DNA of 64,000 bases from the NCBI RefSeq assembly GCF_055900595.2, contig NZ_CM148325.1. One strand, given 5' to 3'. Positions 129 to 26,278 of this stretch are shown here, one piece after another. Under the pieces are notes generated by a model. It was given only the letters and a program-made list of their open reading frames with translations. It was not told the DNA's origin and did no database searches. Position 1 is the first letter of the stretch, and the number at the start of each line of letters is the position of its first letter. The position numbers and the translations under genes are program-made.

Positions 129-1358
129 TTAGCTAAAGAACATTACCGATACGCACAGGATACCCACGATCAGCGTAATCAGATTTCCGATGGAACGCCA
201 GGGTTTAAGCGCCGGGATGAGATATGTTGACAGCGTAGGCATGATGAAAAGTATCATGGCAATGAGCGGGCCGCTGATCGCGTAAATCATCGAAATCGCG
301 TTCGGGTTAATGCAACAAACAAAGAAGGTAATGAGCGATACCAACATAATTGATAGTGCGCGGTTAAATGCACGACTTTTCTTTACACCAACCTGCTGTA
401 GTGTTGTTTTGACGACCTCCGTGGCACCTTCAATAACGCCAAAGTACGTACCCAGGAATGATTTCGACATCGCAACTACTGCGACAATAATCCCGGAAAT
501 TGACAACCATGCTGGGGCGTTCGGCAGCATAGAAAGCGCCGATAAAATGGTAACCCCTTCTTCTTTAGCCGCTTCAATATACGAAGGTGGAATAGAAAGC
601 AGGCAGCTAAAGACAAAGAACAGTACACTTATGCAGATGATGAGATAAGCGACTTTCATAATTTTTTTGCATTTATCCATAGCGTGTTCGCCATATTTTT
701 CACGTCTGTCTATGGCAAACGTAGAAATAATGGGCGTATGGCTAAAGGCGAAAACCATCACGGGAATCGATATCCATATCTGGTGAAGGGTATTCTGATT
801 GAACTCTACCTGGGTAGTTAATAGATCAGGTTGCCAACTACCGACCAGGTAAATAGATAGAAATAAGAAATAGGCAATCAATGGGAATACCAAAAATCCC
901 ATTACCCGAATAGTGGCATGGCGTCCCATCAGAAAAATGAGATTCAGAATTAATACAACACCCAGACTCACCAACATACGGATGCGAAGATCAATAACCA
1001 TATGCTTTGCCAGCTGTTCCGTAAGTGAGTTGGTAATTGCCACGGCATATATCAACACGACGACAAAAAAGGCGATGAAGTACAGCGTGGTAATCAGATT
1101 ACCAATCTTCTTGCCATAGTAGTGTGTTACCGCGCCCGTTATCCCTTCACCTGCTGATGTTTTTGATGAGAGGATGAATTGGCATAAGGCTTTATGTGGC
1201 CAATATGTTAAAGGCCAGGCGACCAGAGCAGTAATAAACAGGACCACAGCCCCTGCCGAACCTAACTGAATAGGAAGGAAGAGCGTGCCTGCACCAACGG
1301 CTGTGCCGTAGAGTGCGAAACTCCACAGAGTTTCTTCTTTTGACCAAATCTTAGACAT
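129..1358 (-). CDS. yqeG: Putative amino-acid (HAAAP/SdaC-TdcC-like) transporter YqeG
   Basis: 409-aa ORF, highly hydrophobic multi-pass membrane protein; divergent from yqeF as in the E. coli yqeG-yqeF arrangement. Confidence 0.85.
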   Translation of the reverse strand: MSKIWSKEETLWSFALYGTAVGAGTLFLPIQLGSAGAVVLFITALVAWPLTYWPHKALCQFILSSKTSAGEGITGAVTHYYGKKIGNLITTLYFIAFFVVVLIYAVAITNSLTEQLAKHMVIDLRIRMLVSLGVVLILNLIFLMGRHATIRVMGFLVFPLIAYFLFLSIYLVGSWQPDLLTTQVEFNQNTLHQIWISIPVMVFAFSHTPIISTFAIDRREKYGEHAMDKCKKIMKVAYLIICISVLFFVFSCLLSIPPSYIEAAKEEGVTILSALSMLPNAPAWLSISGIIVAVVAMSKSFLGTYFGVIEGATEVVKTTLQQVGVKKSRAFNRALSIMLVSLITFFVCCINPNAISMIYAISGPLIAMILFIMPTLSTYLIPALKPWRSIGNLITLIVGILCVSVMFFS

Positions 1359-1612
1359 TATTTGAACGTATCATCTACAAATTAAACAAAATGGAGGGCA
1401 ATTTACCATAAACCAGGTTCAGTATGGGAGATTAACGCCATATCTACCCCTCTATTGGTGGGTTAGTGGTTGCAAACCTTACGTGCCAGTTATGTCTCTG
1501 AGTGCTGGTCAGGCGTATTTCCTTTGTGATAAAAATCACTTTTTTTAAACAATTAAGATAACTGTAATTAACAATCATTTACTATTGCACTGTCAATTGG
1601 TGCGAGGTTGTG

Positions 1613-2794
1613 ATGAAAGACGTTGTGATTGTCGGGGCGTTACGGACACCTATCGGCTGTTTTCGTGGTGCGTTAGCGGGTCATTCCGCCGTGGAACTTG
1701 GCAGCCTGGTCGTGAAAGCGTTAATAGAACGTACCGGTGTTTCTGCATATGCGGTGGATGAAGTGATTCTTGGTCAGGTGTTGACTGCAGGGGCAGGGCA
1801 AAATCCGGCAAGGCAATCGGCTATTAAAGGTGGTCTTCCTAACAGCGTTTCTGCAATCACTATTAATGACGTTTGCGGTTCCGGGCTTAAAGCACTGCAT
1901 CTGGCTACTCAGGCGATCCAGTGTGGCGAGGCGGATATTGTCATCGCCGGTAGCCAGGAAAACATGAGCCGCGCACCACACGTTCTTACAGATAGCCGCA
2001 CCGGTGCACAGCTTGGCAATAGCCAGTTGGTTGATAGTCTGGTGCATGACGGCTTGTGGGATGCCTTCAATGATTATCATATTGGTGTCACCGCCGAAAA
2101 TCTGGCTCGCGAATATGGCATCAGCCGTCAGTTGCAGGATGCTTACGCACTTAGCTCGCAACAAAAAGCGCGAGCGGCGATTGACGCCGGACGATTTAAA
2201 GATGAAATCGTCCCGGTAATGACCCAAAGTAACGGTCAGGCGTTGGTTGTTGATACCGATGAACAGCCACGCACTGACGCCAGTGCAGAAGGCTTGGCCC
2301 GTTTAAATCCTTCATTTGATAGTCTCGGTTCTGTGACAGCGGGTAATGCATCATCCATAAACGATGGCGCAGCTGCGGTAATGATGATGAGCGAAGCCAA
2401 AGCGCGAGCGTTGAATTTACCCGTGCTTGCCCGCATTCGCGCATTTGCCAGCGTTGGTGTAGATCCGGCATTAATGGGAATTGCGCCGGTGTATGCGACA
2501 CGCCGTTGCCTGGAACGTGTCGGCTGGCAGTTGGCTGATGTCGATCTTATTGAGGCTAATGAAGCGTTTGCTGCTCAGGCGCTTTCGGTTGGCAAGATGC
2601 TTGAATGGGATGAGCGTCGGGTCAATGTTAATGGTGGCGCGATCGCGCTCGGTCACCCAATAGGCGCGTCCGGTTGCCGAATCCTGGTTTCTCTGGTTCA
2701 TGAAATGGTGAAACGTAATGCCCGCAAAGGACTGGCTACGCTTTGTATCGGCGGGGGCCAGGGCGTGGCATTGACCATTGAACGTGACGAATAG
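1613..2794 (+). CDS. yqeF: Acetyl-CoA C-acetyltransferase (thiolase II family) YqeF
   Basis: 393 aa from ATG at 1613 (track ORF begins one codon earlier at GTG); thiolase motifs including active-site Cys in NDVCGSGLKA and C-terminal CIGGGQG. Confidence 0.9.
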   Translation: MKDVVIVGALRTPIGCFRGALAGHSAVELGSLVVKALIERTGVSAYAVDEVILGQVLTAGAGQNPARQSAIKGGLPNSVSAITINDVCGSGLKALHLATQAIQCGEADIVIAGSQENMSRAPHVLTDSRTGAQLGNSQLVDSLVHDGLWDAFNDYHIGVTAENLAREYGISRQLQDAYALSSQQKARAAIDAGRFKDEIVPVMTQSNGQALVVDTDEQPRTDASAEGLARLNPSFDSLGSVTAGNASSINDGAAAVMMMSEAKARALNLPVLARIRAFASVGVDPALMGIAPVYATRRCLERVGWQLADVDLIEANEAFAAQALSVGKMLEWDERRVNVNGGAIALGHPIGASGCRILVSLVHEMVKRNARKGLATLCIGGGQGVALTIERDE

Positions 2795-2950
2795 CTCTGC
2801 ATTTCCTCCTTACCGATAAATATCAGCCGTCATTAATCTGTTGAATAATGGTGGCTGGCGAGTCGACATACATTTTCAGGGCTCCCTGATTTTTCCATTC
2901 TCATGACATATTCGTGATCGACACTGCACTTTTTTCAGTCCTTACCTTAA

Positions 2951-2971
2951 AAATGAAATATTGTTTTATTT
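2951..2971. promoter_or_regulatory. KdgR-type operator upstream of kduI
   Basis: aaatgaaatattgttttattt closely matches the palindromic KdgR box AAATGAAACA-N-TGTTTCATTT; lies about 110 bp upstream of the kduI start. Confidence 0.5.
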
Positions 2972-3080
2972 TTAATTGAAAACCCTATCCCGTGGGCATA
3001 TCATCCCCTTATAGAGAAAACGAAACAGCGTTTCACTATCGTTTTCTATTTTCACGCTTCACTGATTATCGGAGGTTGAT

Positions 3081-3917
3081 GTGGACGTAAGACAGAGCAT
3101 CCACAGTGCGCATGCAAAAACGCTGGATACCCAGGGGTTGCGCAATGAATTTTTGGTTGAAAAGGTATTTGTCGCCGATGAGTACACCATGGTTTACAGC
3201 CACATTGACCGTATTATTGTTGGCGGCATTATGCCGGTAACTAAAACGGTTTCCGTTGGCGGGGAAGTTGGTAAACAACTCGGGGTAAGCTATTTCCTGG
3301 AACGTCGCGAGCTAGGTGTTATCAATATTGGCGGTGCCGGTACGATTACCGTCGATGGTCAATGCTATGAAATCGGTCACCGCGAAGCCCTGTATGTTGG
3401 TAAAGGCGCAAAAGAAGTTGTCTTTGCCAGTATTGATACCGCTACTCCGGCGAAGTTTTATTACAATTGCGCACCTGCGCATACGACGTATCCCACCAAA
3501 AAAGTCACACCGGACGAAGTATCTCCAGTCACGTTAGGCGATAACCTCACCAGCAACCGTCGCACGATTAACAAATATTTTGTCCCGGATGTGCTGGAAA
3601 CCTGCCAATTGAGTATGGGGCTGACGGAGCTGGCTCCGGGTAACTTGTGGAACACCATGCCGTGTCACACCCACGAGCGCCGGATGGAAGTTTATTTCTA
3701 TTTCAATATGGATGATGACGCCTGCGTTTTCCACATGATGGGGCAGCCGCAAGAAACGCGTCATATTGTGATGCATAACGAGCAGGCGGTGATCTCCCCG
3801 AGCTGGTCGATCCATTCCGGTGTCGGAACCAAAGCTTATACCTTTATCTGGGGCATGGTCGGTGAAAACCAGGTCTTTGATGATATGGACCATGTGGCCG
3901 TTAAAGATTTGCGCTAG
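3081..3917 (+). CDS. kduI: 4-deoxy-L-threo-5-hexosulose-uronate ketol-isomerase
   Basis: 278-aa ORF with GTG start preceded by ggagg RBS; cupin-type KduI sequence, followed by kduD. Confidence 0.93.
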
Positions 3918-3946: not shown

Positions 3947-4708
3947 ATGATTTTAAGTGCATTTTCTCTCGAAGGTAAAGTTGCGGTCGTCACTGGTTGT
4001 GATACTGGACTGGGTCAGGGGATGGCGTTGGGGCTGGCGCAAGCGGGCTGTGACATTGTTGGCATTAACATCGTTGAACCGACTGAAACCGTCAAGCAGG
4101 TCACGGCGCTGGGGCGTCGTTTTTTAAGCCTGACCGCCGATCTGCGAAAGATTGATGGTATTCCTGGACTGCTGGATCGCGCGGTAGCTGAGTTTGGTCA
4201 TATTGATATCCTGGTGAATAACGCCGGATTGATTCGGCGCGAAGATGCTCTCGAGTTCAGCGAAAAAGACTGGGACGATGTCATGAACCTGAATATCAAG
4301 AGCGTATTCTTCATGTCTCAGGCAGCGGCGAAACACTTTATCGCACAAGGCAATGGCGGCAAGATTATCAATATCGCGTCAATGCTCTCCTTCCAGGGCG
4401 GGATCCGTGTGCCTTCTTATACCGCATCAAAAAGCGGCGTGATGGGCGTGACGCGATTGATGGCGAATGAATGGGCTAAACACAACATTAATGTTAATGC
4501 GATAGCTCCGGGTTACATGGCGACCAACAATACTCAACAACTACGGGCAGATGAACAACGTAGCGCGGAAATTCTCGACCGCATTCCAGCTGGCCGTTGG
4601 GGACTGCCGAGTGACCTGATGGGGCCGGTAGTGTTTCTTGCCTCCAGTGCTTCAGATTATGTGAATGGTTATACCATTGCCGTGGATGGCGGTTGGCTGG
4701 CTCGTTAA
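3947..4708 (+). CDS. kduD: 2-dehydro-3-deoxy-D-gluconate 5-dehydrogenase (SDR family)
   Basis: 253 aa; short-chain dehydrogenase with N-terminal TGCDTGLG Rossmann motif and YTASK catalytic motif; adjacent to kduI. Confidence 0.93.
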   Translation: MILSAFSLEGKVAVVTGCDTGLGQGMALGLAQAGCDIVGINIVEPTETVKQVTALGRRFLSLTADLRKIDGIPGLLDRAVAEFGHIDILVNNAGLIRREDALEFSEKDWDDVMNLNIKSVFFMSQAAAKHFIAQGNGGKIINIASMLSFQGGIRVPSYTASKSGVMGVTRLMANEWAKHNINVNAIAPGYMATNNTQQLRADEQRSAEILDRIPAGRWGLPSDLMGPVVFLASSASDYVNGYTIAVDGGWLAR

Positions 4709-4730
4709 TCCATTCTTCTTACTTTTATGA

Positions 4731-4754
4731 CCCTGCCGCATGGCAGGGTTTTTT
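4731..4754 (+). terminator. Rho-independent terminator after kduD
   Basis: Hairpin ccctgcc-gcat-ggcaggg followed by a run of six T. Confidence 0.7.
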
Positions 4755-4965
4755 ATACCTGTAGATCATCATAATCCATATCATGGTTATGAAATAATCC
4801 ATATCAATTATCAATTAGTGAACTTTATGAATTTTATCTGCTTTAAAATTAGTTGGTTAATAATAATCTCAATAATTCAACTTAATTTGAAAATTGGAAT
4901 ATCCATCACATAACGACATGTCGCAGCAATTTAATCCATATTTATGCTATTTCCGACCTGACACC

Positions 4966-4983
4966 TGTGTGAATTGTTCACGT
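4966..4983. promoter_or_regulatory. CRP-like site in araE promoter region
   Basis: tgtgaattgttcacg fits the TGTGA-N6-TCACA consensus; upstream tccata-type repeats resemble AraC half-sites. Confidence 0.45.
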
Positions 4984-5022
4984 ATTTTTTCACTATGTCT
5001 TACTCTCTGCTGGCAGGAAAAA

Positions 5023-6441
5023 ATGGTTACTATCAATACGGAATCTGCTTTAACGCCACGTTCTTTGCGGGATACGCGGCGTATGAATATGTTTGTTTCG
5101 GTAGCTGCTGCGGTCGCAGGATTGTTATTTGGTCTTGATATCGGCGTAATCGCCGGAGCCTTGCCGTTCATTACCGATCACTTTGTGCTGACCAGCCGTT
5201 TGCAGGAATGGGTGGTTAGTAGCATGATGCTCGGCGCAGCAATTGGTGCGCTGTTTAATGGGTGGCTGTCGTTCCGCCTGGGGCGTAAATACAGCCTGAT
5301 GGCGGGGGCTATCCTTTTTGTGCTCGGTTCGATAGGGTCCGCTTTTGCGACCAGCGTAGAGATGTTAATCGCCGCTCGTGTGGTGCTGGGCATTGCTGTC
5401 GGGATCGCGTCTTACACCGCTCCTCTGTATCTTTCTGAAATGGCAAGTGAAAACGTTCGCGGTAAGATGATCAGTATGTACCAGTTGATGGTCACACTCG
5501 GCATCGTGCTGGCGTTTTTATCCGATACAGCGTTCAGTTATAGCGGTAACTGGCGCGCAATGTTGGGGGTTCTTGCTTTACCAGCAGTCCTGCTGATTAT
5601 TCTGGTGGTCTTCCTGCCAAATAGCCCGCGCTGGCTGGCGGAAAAGGGGCGTCATATTGAGGCGGAAGAAGTGTTGCGTATGCTGCGCGATACGTCGGAA
5701 AAAGCGCGAGAAGAACTCAACGAAATTCGTGAAAGCCTGAAGTTAAAACAGGGCGGTTGGGCACTGTTTAAGATCAACCGTAACGTCCGTCGTGCTGTGT
5801 TTCTCGGTATGTTGTTGCAGGCGATGCAGCAGTTTACCGGTATGAACATCATCATGTACTACGCGCCGCGTATCTTCAAAATGGCGGGCTTTACGACCAC
5901 AGAACAACAGATGATTGCGACTCTGGTCGTAGGGCTGACCTTTATGTTCGCCACCTTCATTGCGGTCTTTACGGTAGATAAAGCAGGGCGTAAGCCGGCT
6001 CTGAAAATTGGTTTCAGCGTGATGGCGTTAGGCACTCTGGTGCTGGGTTACTGCCTGATGCAGTTTGATAACGGTACGGCTTCCAGTGGCTTGTCCTGGC
6101 TCTCTGTTGGCATGACGATGATGTGTATTGCCGGTTATGCGATGAGCGCCGCGCCAGTGGTGTGGATCCTGTGCTCTGAAATTCAGCCGCTGAAATGCCG
6201 CGATTTTGGCATCACCTGCTCAACGACGACAAACTGGGTGTCGAATATGATTATCGGCGCGACCTTCCTGACACTGCTTGATAGCATTGGCGCTGCCGGT
6301 ACGTTCTGGCTCTACACTGCGCTGAACATTGCGTTTGTGGGCATCACTTTCTGGCTCATTCCGGAAACCAAAAATGTCACGCTGGAACATATCGAACGCA
6401 AACTGATGGCAGGCGAGAAGTTGAGAAATATCGGCGTCTGA
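5023..6441 (+). CDS. araE: Arabinose:H+ symporter (MFS sugar porter)
   Basis: 472 aa from ATG at 5023 ([15 protein letters not shown]...), preceded by aggaaa RBS; the track ORF start at 4894 is an upstream in-frame extension through the promoter; MFS sugar transporter motifs. Confidence 0.92.
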
Positions 6442-6447
6442 TTTCAC

Positions 6448-6480
6448 GGGCCGGATGTGCTGTACATCCGGCCCTTTTTT
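6448..6480 (+). terminator. Rho-independent terminator after araE
   Basis: 11-bp stem gggccggatgt/acatccggccc with 5-nt loop, followed by a run of six T. Confidence 0.75.
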
Positions 6481-6569
6481 CGTTAATAGAGATTGGGCAC
6501 CTGGCCGTTGAGGCGTTTGTCTCGTTCCTTATTCAGCCTTGTTGCGGTAACACACATCAGGAGAGAGGA

Positions 6570-7262
6570 ATGAAAACAATTGGTTTGCTGGGAGGAATGA
6601 GTTGGGAATCCACTATTCCTTATTATCGTCTGATTAATGAAGGTATTAAACAGCGGCTTGGTGGGCTTCACTCTGCGCAAGTGCTGCTACATAGCGTCGA
6701 TTTTCATGAAATAGAAGAGTGCCAGCGTCGCGGCGAGTGGGACAAAACCGGGGATATTCTGGCTGAGGCGGCGCTTGGCTTACAGCGGGCGGGCGCAGAA
6801 GGCATTGTGTTATGTACCAACACGATGCACAAAGTGGCGGATGCCATTGAGTCTCGTTGCTCTCTGCCTTTCTTACATATAGCGGATGCCACTGGACGTG
6901 CAATTATCCGGGCTGGGATGACTCGTGTGGCGCTGCTGGGTACGCGTTACACCATGGAACAGGATTTTTATCGCGGGCGGCTGACGGAACAATTTTCCAT
7001 CAACTGTCTCATTCCTGAAGCGGATGAACGGGCGAAAATTAATCAGATTATTTTTGAAGAACTGTGTCTGGGGCAATTTACCGAAGCGTCACGCACTTAT
7101 TATGCGCAAGTGATTGCTCGCCTTGCAGAACAGGGCGCACAGGGTGTCATTTTTGGCTGTACGGAAATTGGTTTACTGGTGCCAGACGAGCGCAGTGTTC
7201 TGCCTGTGTTTGATACCGCGGCGATCCATGCCGAGGATGCTGTCGCTTTTATGCTGTCGTAG
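6570..7262 (+). CDS. ygeA: Asp/Glu/hydantoin-family amino-acid racemase YgeA
   Basis: 230-aa ORF with racemase-like sequence; position between araE and lysR matches K-12 order. Confidence 0.85.
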
Positions 7263-8184
7263 CTGACGACAAAATAGCGTCAAGAGAAGTGACCAGTTTC
7301 GGTAATCCCGCTTGTAAATGCTCACTAAACGCCTGAACCAGCGCTGATGACGGGCGGTGCAGGGGGCGGATCAGGCTGACGGTGAACGGAACCGCAATAC
7401 TGAACCGCCGCACTACTAAACCGCTTGCCGCATAATCCAGTGCGGTGAGCGGGTTAACCACAGAAACACCTACCCCCGCCCGTACCATTGCGCAGACTGA
7501 CGCGGCGCTGTGGGTTTCTACGATCATGCGTCGTTTAACCTGATTCTCAGTAAACAATTGATCCAGCAACTGGCGATAGCTGTCAGTACGGGAAAGGCTG
7601 ATGTAGTTCTCACCCTGAAAATCATCCGGCGTTAATACCTTTTTTACCGCCAGCGGATGACCCGGAGGTAACACACACACTTCATCTAAAGAGAGTAATT
7701 CGGTACGTTCTGTTCCCGCAGGCGTATGGAGCGTTTCAGTGAGTCCTAAATCATGACGCTGGGCCGAGAGCCACTCTTCAAGTAGCGGTGATTCCTGGGG
7801 CACGATGTTTAAGCTGACATCGGGATAACGTGCCAGAAAGGGTTGCAGGAGCTGCGGTAAAAAAGATTGCGAAAAGACCGGCAGGCAGGCAATAGACAGT
7901 TCTCCCTGGCGAAACTCGCGCAGACTTTCTGCGGCACTGACAATGCGATCCAGTCCGTACCAGGATCGTTGCACTTCTTCAAACAGACGCAGTCCTTGCA
8001 CGGTAGGATGTAATCGTCCACGTATGCGCTCAAACAATTTCAGCCCGATCACCTTCTCAAAGCGCGCCAGTTCGCGGCTGACGGTTGGCTGTGAGGTGTG
8101 TAGCAGGTGTGCTGCCTCAGTCAGGCTTCCGGCGGTCATTACCGCATGAAAAATTTCAATATGACGTAAGTTAACGGCAGCCAT
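7249..8184 (-). CDS. lysR: LysR transcriptional activator of lysA
   Basis: 311 aa; N-terminal HTH ([23 protein letters not shown]), divergent from lysA. Confidence 0.93.
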
Positions 8185-10606: not shown

Positions 10607-10819
10607 GAAAATACCTTAGTGGGTAAACGCTTACATTCTGTCAGTGTTACGGAAAATACCTGTTGGTTCAAGTGGCGACGTGTTTTCATCGTGGGAATGT
10701 GAGCCAAACGCAAATAAATAAGACAAAAAAAGAGATTGCAAACCTTTGGTTACACTTTGCGAAACGCTGTTGCGATTGACCGCTGGTTGCGTTTGGCTTC
10801 AGGTTGCTAAAGTGGTGGT

Positions 10820-25874: not shown

Positions 25875-26278
25875 ACCGCGAAAAGGGTGTTTCGTCACTG
25901 GCTCTGGTCCTTATGCTGCTGGTTTTGGGTAGCTTGCTATTGCAAGGAATGAGTCAGCAGGATCGCAGTTTTGCCTCTCGCGTGAGCATGGAAAGTCAGT
26001 CATTGCGCCGCCAGGCCATCGTTCAGTCGACGCTGGAGTGGGGAAAAATGCACGCCTGGCAGACGCAGCCCGCAGTTCAGTGCTTACTGTACGCTGCCAC
26101 CGGTGCCCGGGTTTGTCTGCGTTTATTGGCAGATAATGAAGCCTTATTGATTGCCGGTTATGAAGGCGTTTCGTTGTGGCGAACAGGCGAAGTCATCGAT
26201 GGAAACATTGTTTTTTCGCCACGCGGCTGGAGCGATTTTTGTCCGCTGAAAGAGAGGGCGTTATGTCAGCTTCCCTGA
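25871..26278 (+). CDS. ygdB: Pilus-assembly-like protein YgdB
   Basis: 135 aa; GTG start overlapping the ppdB stop; N-terminal hydrophobic segment. Confidence 0.8.

Follow-up and report, generated by a model that had tools for sequence, protein, structure and literature searches.

The spacer between yqeF and kduI raises the question of how the kduI-kduD gene pair of Escherichia coli is controlled, and by which repressor. The initial annotation, made from the sequence, had read a near-palindromic 21-mer in this spacer as a KdgR box and took it to be consistent with pectin- and hexuronate-responsive control of kduI-kduD. We analysed this 21-mer, here called O1, within a 64,000-nucleotide stretch of DNA (the window), which comes from an E. 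coli chromosome: a 501-base query around 2951-2971 found a match in 5418 of 5426 complete E. coli genomes, and the matched stretch is annotated there as kduI and yqeF.

The spacer between yqeF and kduI measures 286 bp, and O1 is located in it 110-130 nt before the GTG start of kduI (Table 1). The kduI reading frame agrees with the RefSeq annotation, and kduD starts 29 nt past its end. A scan of the gap between the two genes for terminator-like sites found none and they are presumably co-transcribed; the hairpin directly after kduD marks the end of the unit. The hairpin after yqeF is weak as a terminator and may be due to chance. The kdgR gene is outside the window, and in K-12 it lies elsewhere on the chromosome (locus L004, 4309-5100).

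Table 1 Features of the kduI-kduD region and best motif matches in the window. Conservation values refer to an alignment of 79 sequences.
Feature	Position	Strand	Basis or description
yqeG-like permease	129-1358	-	NCBIfam
yqeF thiolase	1610-2794	+	NCBIfam
Terminator-like hairpin after yqeF, upstream of kduI promoter	2876-2899	+	5-pair stem and T-run
Conserved block, CRP-like	2913-2928	none	CGTGATCGACACTGCA; centre ~-90.5; good left half, weak right half
KdgR-type operator O1	2951-2971	none	AAATGAAATATTGTTTTATTT, core TGAAAT-ATT-GTTTTA
O1 half-site TGAAAC	2954-2959		99-100% conserved
O1 central bases	2960-2962		53-67% conserved
O1 half-site GTTTTA	2963-2968		99-100% conserved
-35 region	2975-2981		AATTGAAAA / AATTGAAA; 100% conserved
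kduI sigma-70 promoter-like element	2976-3004	+	-35 TTGAAA (2976-2981), 17 nt spacer, -10 TATCAT (2999-3004)
T and A of the -10 (TA..AT)	2999, 3000, 3003, 3004		100% conserved
Predicted transcription start A	3011	+	7 nt past the -10 hexamer; promoter geometry; A 100% conserved
KdgR-type operator O2	3018-3038	none	AAACGAAACAGCGTTTCACTA; 22.1-23.6 bits, rank 2 in window
O2 core CG.AAC...GTTT	3021-3033		86-100% conserved
kduI ribosome-binding site GGAGG	3071-3075	+	Direct reading of sequence; conserved in alignment
kduI, 5-dehydro-4-deoxy-D-glucuronate isomerase, GTG start	3081-3917	+	NCBIfam NF002091, 454.8 bits (cutoff 250)
kduD, 2-dehydro-3-deoxy-D-gluconate 5-dehydrogenase	3947-4708	+	NCBIfam NF006528, 552.8 bits; TIGR01832
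Intrinsic-terminator-like hairpin and T-run after kduD	4729-4760	+	9-pair stem, 6 GC pairs, then TTTTTATACCT
araE	4894-6441		NCBIfam
ygeA	6570-7262		NCBIfam
lysR	7249-8184	-	NCBIfam
Next PWM match outside the kduI promoter	10757-10777		TTGCGAAACGCTGTTGCGATT; 6-9 bits
Best PWM match outside the kduI promoter	26198-26218		GATGGAAACATTGTTTTTTCG; 9-10 bits

The near-palindrome is real: the reverse complement of O1 is AAATAAAACAATATTTCATTT, and eight of its ten symmetric pairs are complementary. This property alone is unexceptional, as 37 21-mers in the window have at least 8/10 palindromic pairs, compared with ~27 expected from a simple binomial estimate, and we dropped palindromy as evidence for O1. 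With such palindromes so common, the test must therefore be motif-specific, and it is the match to a KdgR-type motif that sets O1 apart.

A KdgR consensus from general knowledge (AAATGAAACANTGTTTCATTT) was used for first scoring only and then superseded by a motif derived without a seed. A scan for relatives of KduI provided 80 loci, from Escherichia, Citrobacter, Enterobacter, Kluyvera, Kosakonia, Lelliottia, Trabulsiella and other genera. In many of them kduI is adjoined by genes that are absent from E. coli, whose products were identified by Pfam: an oligogalacturonate lyase (ogl; PF14583, 672.9 bits), a KdgM-family porin (PF06178) and a small kdgF-like cupin (Cupin_2). The training set (n = 32) comprised at most ten diverse upstream regions each of the ogl, kdgM-type porin and kdgF-like genes, together with those of K-12 kdgK and kdgT, which are named as known KdgR targets (PMC6892915; PMC6958661), and included no kduI sequence. 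Run without a seed on these 32 promoters, a Gibbs sampler settled on aTGAAAC-NNN-GTTTtA in every one of them, and O1 matches this de novo motif. The relationship also holds in reverse: a position weight matrix (PWM) built from the non-Escherichia kduI orthologues of O1 scores the kdgT operator at 31.6 bits and the kdgK operator at 13.5 bits, each being the single best match in the 15 kb around its gene.

The matrix does not capture every gene ascribed to the regulon. eda has been called a KdgR target (PMC6958661), and a scan of the K-12 edd-eda region (locus L004, 27700-29700) revealed no KdgR-type box upstream of eda or within edd, with a best score of 0.4 bits. Either the KdgR site of eda is atypical or its regulation is indirect; because no box was found there, eda was not usable as a training site, and because it has no PWM site, the matrix misses some reported KdgR targets. 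The kdgR-yebQ intergenic region was likewise scanned and contains no convincing KdgR-type box.

With the kduI-free matrix, O1 scores 25.0-28.7 bits and ranks first on both strands of the whole window. The highest-scoring sites outside the kduI promoter (Table 1) are at chance level, about one being expected per 64 kb. Background was taken from the window and ~73 kb of K-12 loci, as well as from random sequence: no match reaching the score of O1 was found in 2 Mb of first-order Markov sequence, and the exact score distribution predicts 3.6e-5 matches of this level per 64 kb, or ~3e-3 per 5 Mb genome. A PWM scan had been suggested as the check on this site, with a low score counting against it; low is not what was found, because O1 has rank 1 and so small a chance expectation, with the best site outside the kduI promoter at 9-10 bits. 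O1 fits the matrix as well as the established E. coli operators of kdgK (24-28 bits) and kdgT (27-29 bits), and its score lies among those of the training sites (19-33 bits).

An orthologue of O1 is present in 78 of the 80 loci, at -113 to -137 from the kduI start. The footprint used to follow its conservation comprised 79 distinct sequences from upstream of kduI, drawn from many genera of Enterobacteriaceae; loci L005 and L083 were left out, their upstream regions being non-homologous and carrying no box. G2955, C2959 and G2963 are invariant in the O1 orthologues. Constant half-sites around a variable centre (Table 1) are the signature that would be expected of a site for a dimeric repressor. 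The assignment to the KdgR box thus gains both from the score and from half-sites conserved across 78 of 80 loci.

A simpler reading would be that no specific repressor is involved and that O1 is either an AT-rich near-palindrome due to chance or a generic AT tract at the kduI promoter, UP-like or bound by H-NS. The yqeF-kduI intergenic region is 62% A+T, the window holds the many equally palindromic 21-mers mentioned above, and H-NS has been flagged at the kduI-yqeF spacer (PMC3946193). A compositional AT tract, however, would not be conserved base by base with the centre left variable, and the score of O1 stands 15-19 bits above that of any site in the 64 kb outside the kduI promoter, with a vanishing chance expectation. 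The PWM and footprint results effectively refute this reading, to which we attach almost no probability. Judged on its sequence, O1 has what a KdgR box would be expected to have: an imperfect palindrome of about 17-21 bp in which half-sites of the form TGAAA(C/T) and (G/A)TTT(C/T)A flank one central base, the score, the location at the promoter of a gene for KDG, uronate or pectin catabolism, and the conservation among orthologues.

The same scan returned a second box, O2, which the initial annotation did not list. Matches at the level of O2 are expected by chance at 1.2e-3 per 64-kb window. The centres of O1 and O2 are 67 bp apart in the window and 67-68 bp apart in 70 of the 80 loci. O2 is less universal than O1, being reduced or missing in some genera, and scores under 10 bits in 24/80 loci. 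Between the two boxes is the only promoter-like match in 2700-3200, TTGAAA-17-TATCAT (10/12), and identical hexamers are listed for the kduI promoter by Shimada et al. 2014 (PMC3946193). O1 ends 4 nt before the -35 hexamer, and relative to the predicted start at A3011, O1 would span about -60 to -40 and O2 about +8 to +28; an experimentally mapped kduI transcription start was not found in the literature searched. O1 and O2 therefore bracket a conserved sigma-70 promoter. A possible third box overlapping the -35 (TGAAAACC...) was seen in a few genera (L033, L061) and was rejected as unsupported in E. coli.

The position of O2 in the predicted leader allows a different interpretation, in which the conserved inverted repeats function in the RNA, by forming a hairpin around O2 (3015-3047) in the 5' leader, and not as DNA to which a protein binds. 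The leader does hold AGAAAACGA...TCGTTTTCT, which could form a 9-bp stem. The fold energy of 3011-3095 is nevertheless that of shuffled sequence (z = 0.00), an Rfam search of the leader returned no match at E <= 1, and the alignment keeps the KdgR half-sites rather than the outer stem; O1, being upstream of the predicted start, would stay untranscribed. In view of the fold statistic and the Rfam result we dropped an RNA-level role, which we regard as highly improbable.

Upstream of O1, the conserved block at 2913-2928 resembles a CRP site. Compared with TGTGA-N6-TCACA, the window reads CGTGA-TCGACA-CTGCA, matching 6/10 core bases with 4 mismatches. Across genera CGTGATC is at least 94% conserved, GTGA 99-100%, and the final CA (2927-2928) 99-100%. 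By this resemblance the block is tentatively a candidate CRP site.

The window carries an uncommon variant of O1. At 2959 it has T, giving the half-site TGAAAT, compared with C in all 78 orthologous boxes. C is also found at this position in five of five other E. coli sequences inspected (one K-12-like and four other genomes) and in the closest relative, which is 99.8% identical over 501 bp, and the exact 42-mer 2946-2987 occurs in just 7 of 4901 matching E. coli genomes. The change from C to T lowers the PWM score of O1 by 2-6.5 bits, and the T2959 form still scores like a bona fide operator. By its effect on the score, T2959 might weaken repressor binding at O1. A more speculative extension, which we consider possible though rather unlikely, is that T2959 is a natural operator-down allele that partly derepresses kduID, and, relatedly, that the distance of 67-68 bp between O1 and O2 is so strictly kept because KdgR forms a repression loop around the core promoter. 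The loop is a possible alternative to O1 and O2 acting as two independent sites.

Galacturonate and glucuronate are catabolised via KDG. Published data on expression link both this pathway and KdgR to the operon: galacturonate or glucuronate raises the activity of a kduI promoter fusion 7-54 fold (PMC3578941), the kdgR knockout JW1816 has increased kduD mRNA (PMC6958661), and over-expression of both kduI and kduD was seen in a strain whose deletion takes in kdgR (PMC6892915). kdgK and kdgT are also derepressed by deletion of kdgR alone (PMC6958661). For Dickeya, it has been stated that KDG inactivates KdgR (bioRxiv 10.1101/2020.07.24.220400), and E. coli K-12 is unable to degrade pectin (PMC6958661). 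The proposed control of kduI-kduD thus stands, given the derepression in the kdgR knockout, with one amendment: the signal of KdgR is KDG, a catabolite of hexuronates and pectin, and not pectin itself. KdgR control of E. coli kduID had been predicted by comparative genomics (Rodionov et al. 2000, 2004, as described in papers citing them) and, as expression data support that prediction, is already known.

Given the motif match, its statistical strength, the conservation and the promoter geometry described here, combined with the reported derepression in kdgR and plaR knockouts, in vitro binding of PlaR, the inducing effect of galacturonate and glucuronate, and the inactivation of Dickeya KdgR by its ligand KDG, 2951-2971 is very probably the operator O1 of the IclR-family repressor KdgR at the kduI-kduD promoter. 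From this combination we infer the assignment of the protein to the box, the start site and the steric mechanism. In the literature searched, we found no footprint or gel shift of E. coli KdgR on a kduI fragment or on the O1 21-mer; because in vitro binding there has been reported only for PlaR, occupancy of the 21-mer by KdgR is what we infer.

PlaR (YiaJ) itself could be the principal occupant. O1 would then be primarily a PlaR operator, with the effect of KdgR on kduID indirect. Such an effect could arise, for instance, if the two repressor genes regulate each other, as has been reported: there is more plaR mRNA in the kdgR knockout and more kdgR mRNA in the plaR knockout (PMC6958661). kduI is among the PlaR targets from gSELEX, the plaR knockout has raised kduD mRNA, and a kduI probe equivalent to 2689-3100 of the window is shifted by PlaR; this probe covers both boxes and does not separate binding to one from binding to the other (PMC6958661). 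The published PlaR box, ATnTGAAACnnnGTTCAnTT, also resembles the KdgR box (PMC6958661). The strongest target of PlaR gives a different picture, however: the likely PlaR box at the yiaK promoter, ATTTGAAATCAAGTTTCGCAT, receives only -0.4 to 2.1 bits from the KdgR-type PWM, compared with 25-28 for O1. This yiaK candidate and O1 nevertheless share a TGAAA...TTTC skeleton. Because the yiaK box scores around zero, the kduI boxes look like KdgR boxes that PlaR also binds, and not the reverse. The motif moreover precedes ogl, kdgM-type porin and kdgF-like genes, members of the classical KdgR regulon, in neighbouring loci, and deletion of kdgR alone is sufficient to derepress kduD, kdgK and kdgT (PMC6958661). 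Since the gel shifts used 1-5 uM PlaR, cross-binding of PlaR to the site of its paralogue is plausible. We therefore judge a primarily PlaR-dedicated O1 to be improbable. Co-regulation of kduI by PlaR and KdgR was proposed by Shimada et al. 2019 (PMC6958661), and as PlaR also binds the probe and represses kduD, "KdgR-type" is a safer name for the boxes than "KdgR only".

With KdgR as the main repressor, the architecture suggests how the operon could be switched. In the absence of inducer, KdgR dimers would sit on O1 and O2 and block transcription: at O1 they would keep RNA polymerase from its upstream and -35 contacts and possibly also interfere with the action of the upstream CRP-like site, and at O2 they would form an obstacle shortly after the start. 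Cooperation between the operators is possible. During catabolism of hexuronates or unsaturated uronates, KDG would accumulate and inactivate KdgR, thereby derepressing the operon. Binding of the paralogue PlaR to the same region would add a second layer of repression.

The orthologous loci differ in the genes that accompany kduI. In many Enterobacteriaceae, as in Enterobacter cloacae (L028, 3654-5770) and at equivalent positions in ~40 loci, yqeF and kduI are separated by a kdgM-family porin gene and ogl, both of which have a KdgR-type box of their own. Because both genes are absent from it, the Escherichia yqeF-kduI spacer appears as a reduced version of a larger island for pectin products. 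Five Citrobacter loci (L018, at ~5640, L019, L020, L040 and L043) have an ogl-type box (e.g. AAATGAAACAACGTTTTGATA) ~360 bp upstream of kduI, and tblastn found no ogl gene starting there; this box is possibly a relic operator or the operator of another gene. In some genera a kdgF-like cupin gene (~108 aa) with a strong KdgR-type box is found between araE and ygeA (L018, 9497-9861; L059, 10435-10792), a gap that in the window is only 128 bp (6442-6569) and has no such gene. Two loci, L005 and L065, encode near-identical enterobacterial KduI but are labelled, implausibly, as a Deltaproteobacteria MAG and a Chryseobacterium isolate, which is probably due to assembly contamination or mislabelling.

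O1 is an ordinary site, and its main value is as a control. The initial annotation had offered it as an internal check on its intergenic calls, and it serves as one: the intergenic call, the assignment of kduI-kduD and the regulatory guess all hold, so the calls made in this region can be trusted. What is added is small: a two-operator architecture that brackets the promoter, evidence for a motif of KdgR type rather than one like the likely PlaR box of yiaK, and a rare operator polymorphism in the strain.

The operators of K-12 kdgT (AAATAAAACAGCGTTTCAATT) and kdgK (TAATGGAACACTGTTTTAATA) have the same motif as O1. They score in the same range (24-29 bits, versus 25-29 for O1), serve KDG metabolism and are derepressed in the kdgR knockout, but PWM scans place one strong box at each of these genes, whereas kduI has two that flank its core promoter. 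The KdgR of Bacillus subtilis shares its name through function and not homology: it is a LacI-family protein with an unrelated operator. As in E. coli, it targets kduI-kduD through two upstream repressor sites, which lie between kdgR and kduI (Lin and Shaw 2007, as described in a citing paper). PlaR is a paralogous IclR repressor with a similar TGAAAC half-site in its box, but its reported effectors are ascorbate and galacturonate (PMC6958661), unlike KdgR with KDG.

A further parallel is the KdgR of the pectinolysis regulon of Dickeya dadantii (Erwinia chrysanthemi), which, according to summaries citing Nasser 1994 and Rodionov 2004 and to general knowledge, is an IclR-family repressor that recognises a palindromic box of the TGAAA...TTTCA type, like O1. 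Its inactivating ligand is KDG (bioRxiv 10.1101/2020.07.24.220400). Its regulon includes kduI, ogl, kdgM/kdgN, kdgF, kdgK and kdgT, genes at which the box also occurs in the enterobacterial loci analysed here. Because pectinases, ogl and kdgM are absent at the locus, E. coli appears to keep only the downstream catabolic part of a Dickeya-type regulon: the KDG-responsive end of the enterobacterial pectin and uronate regulon, as comparative genomics and knockout expression data already say.
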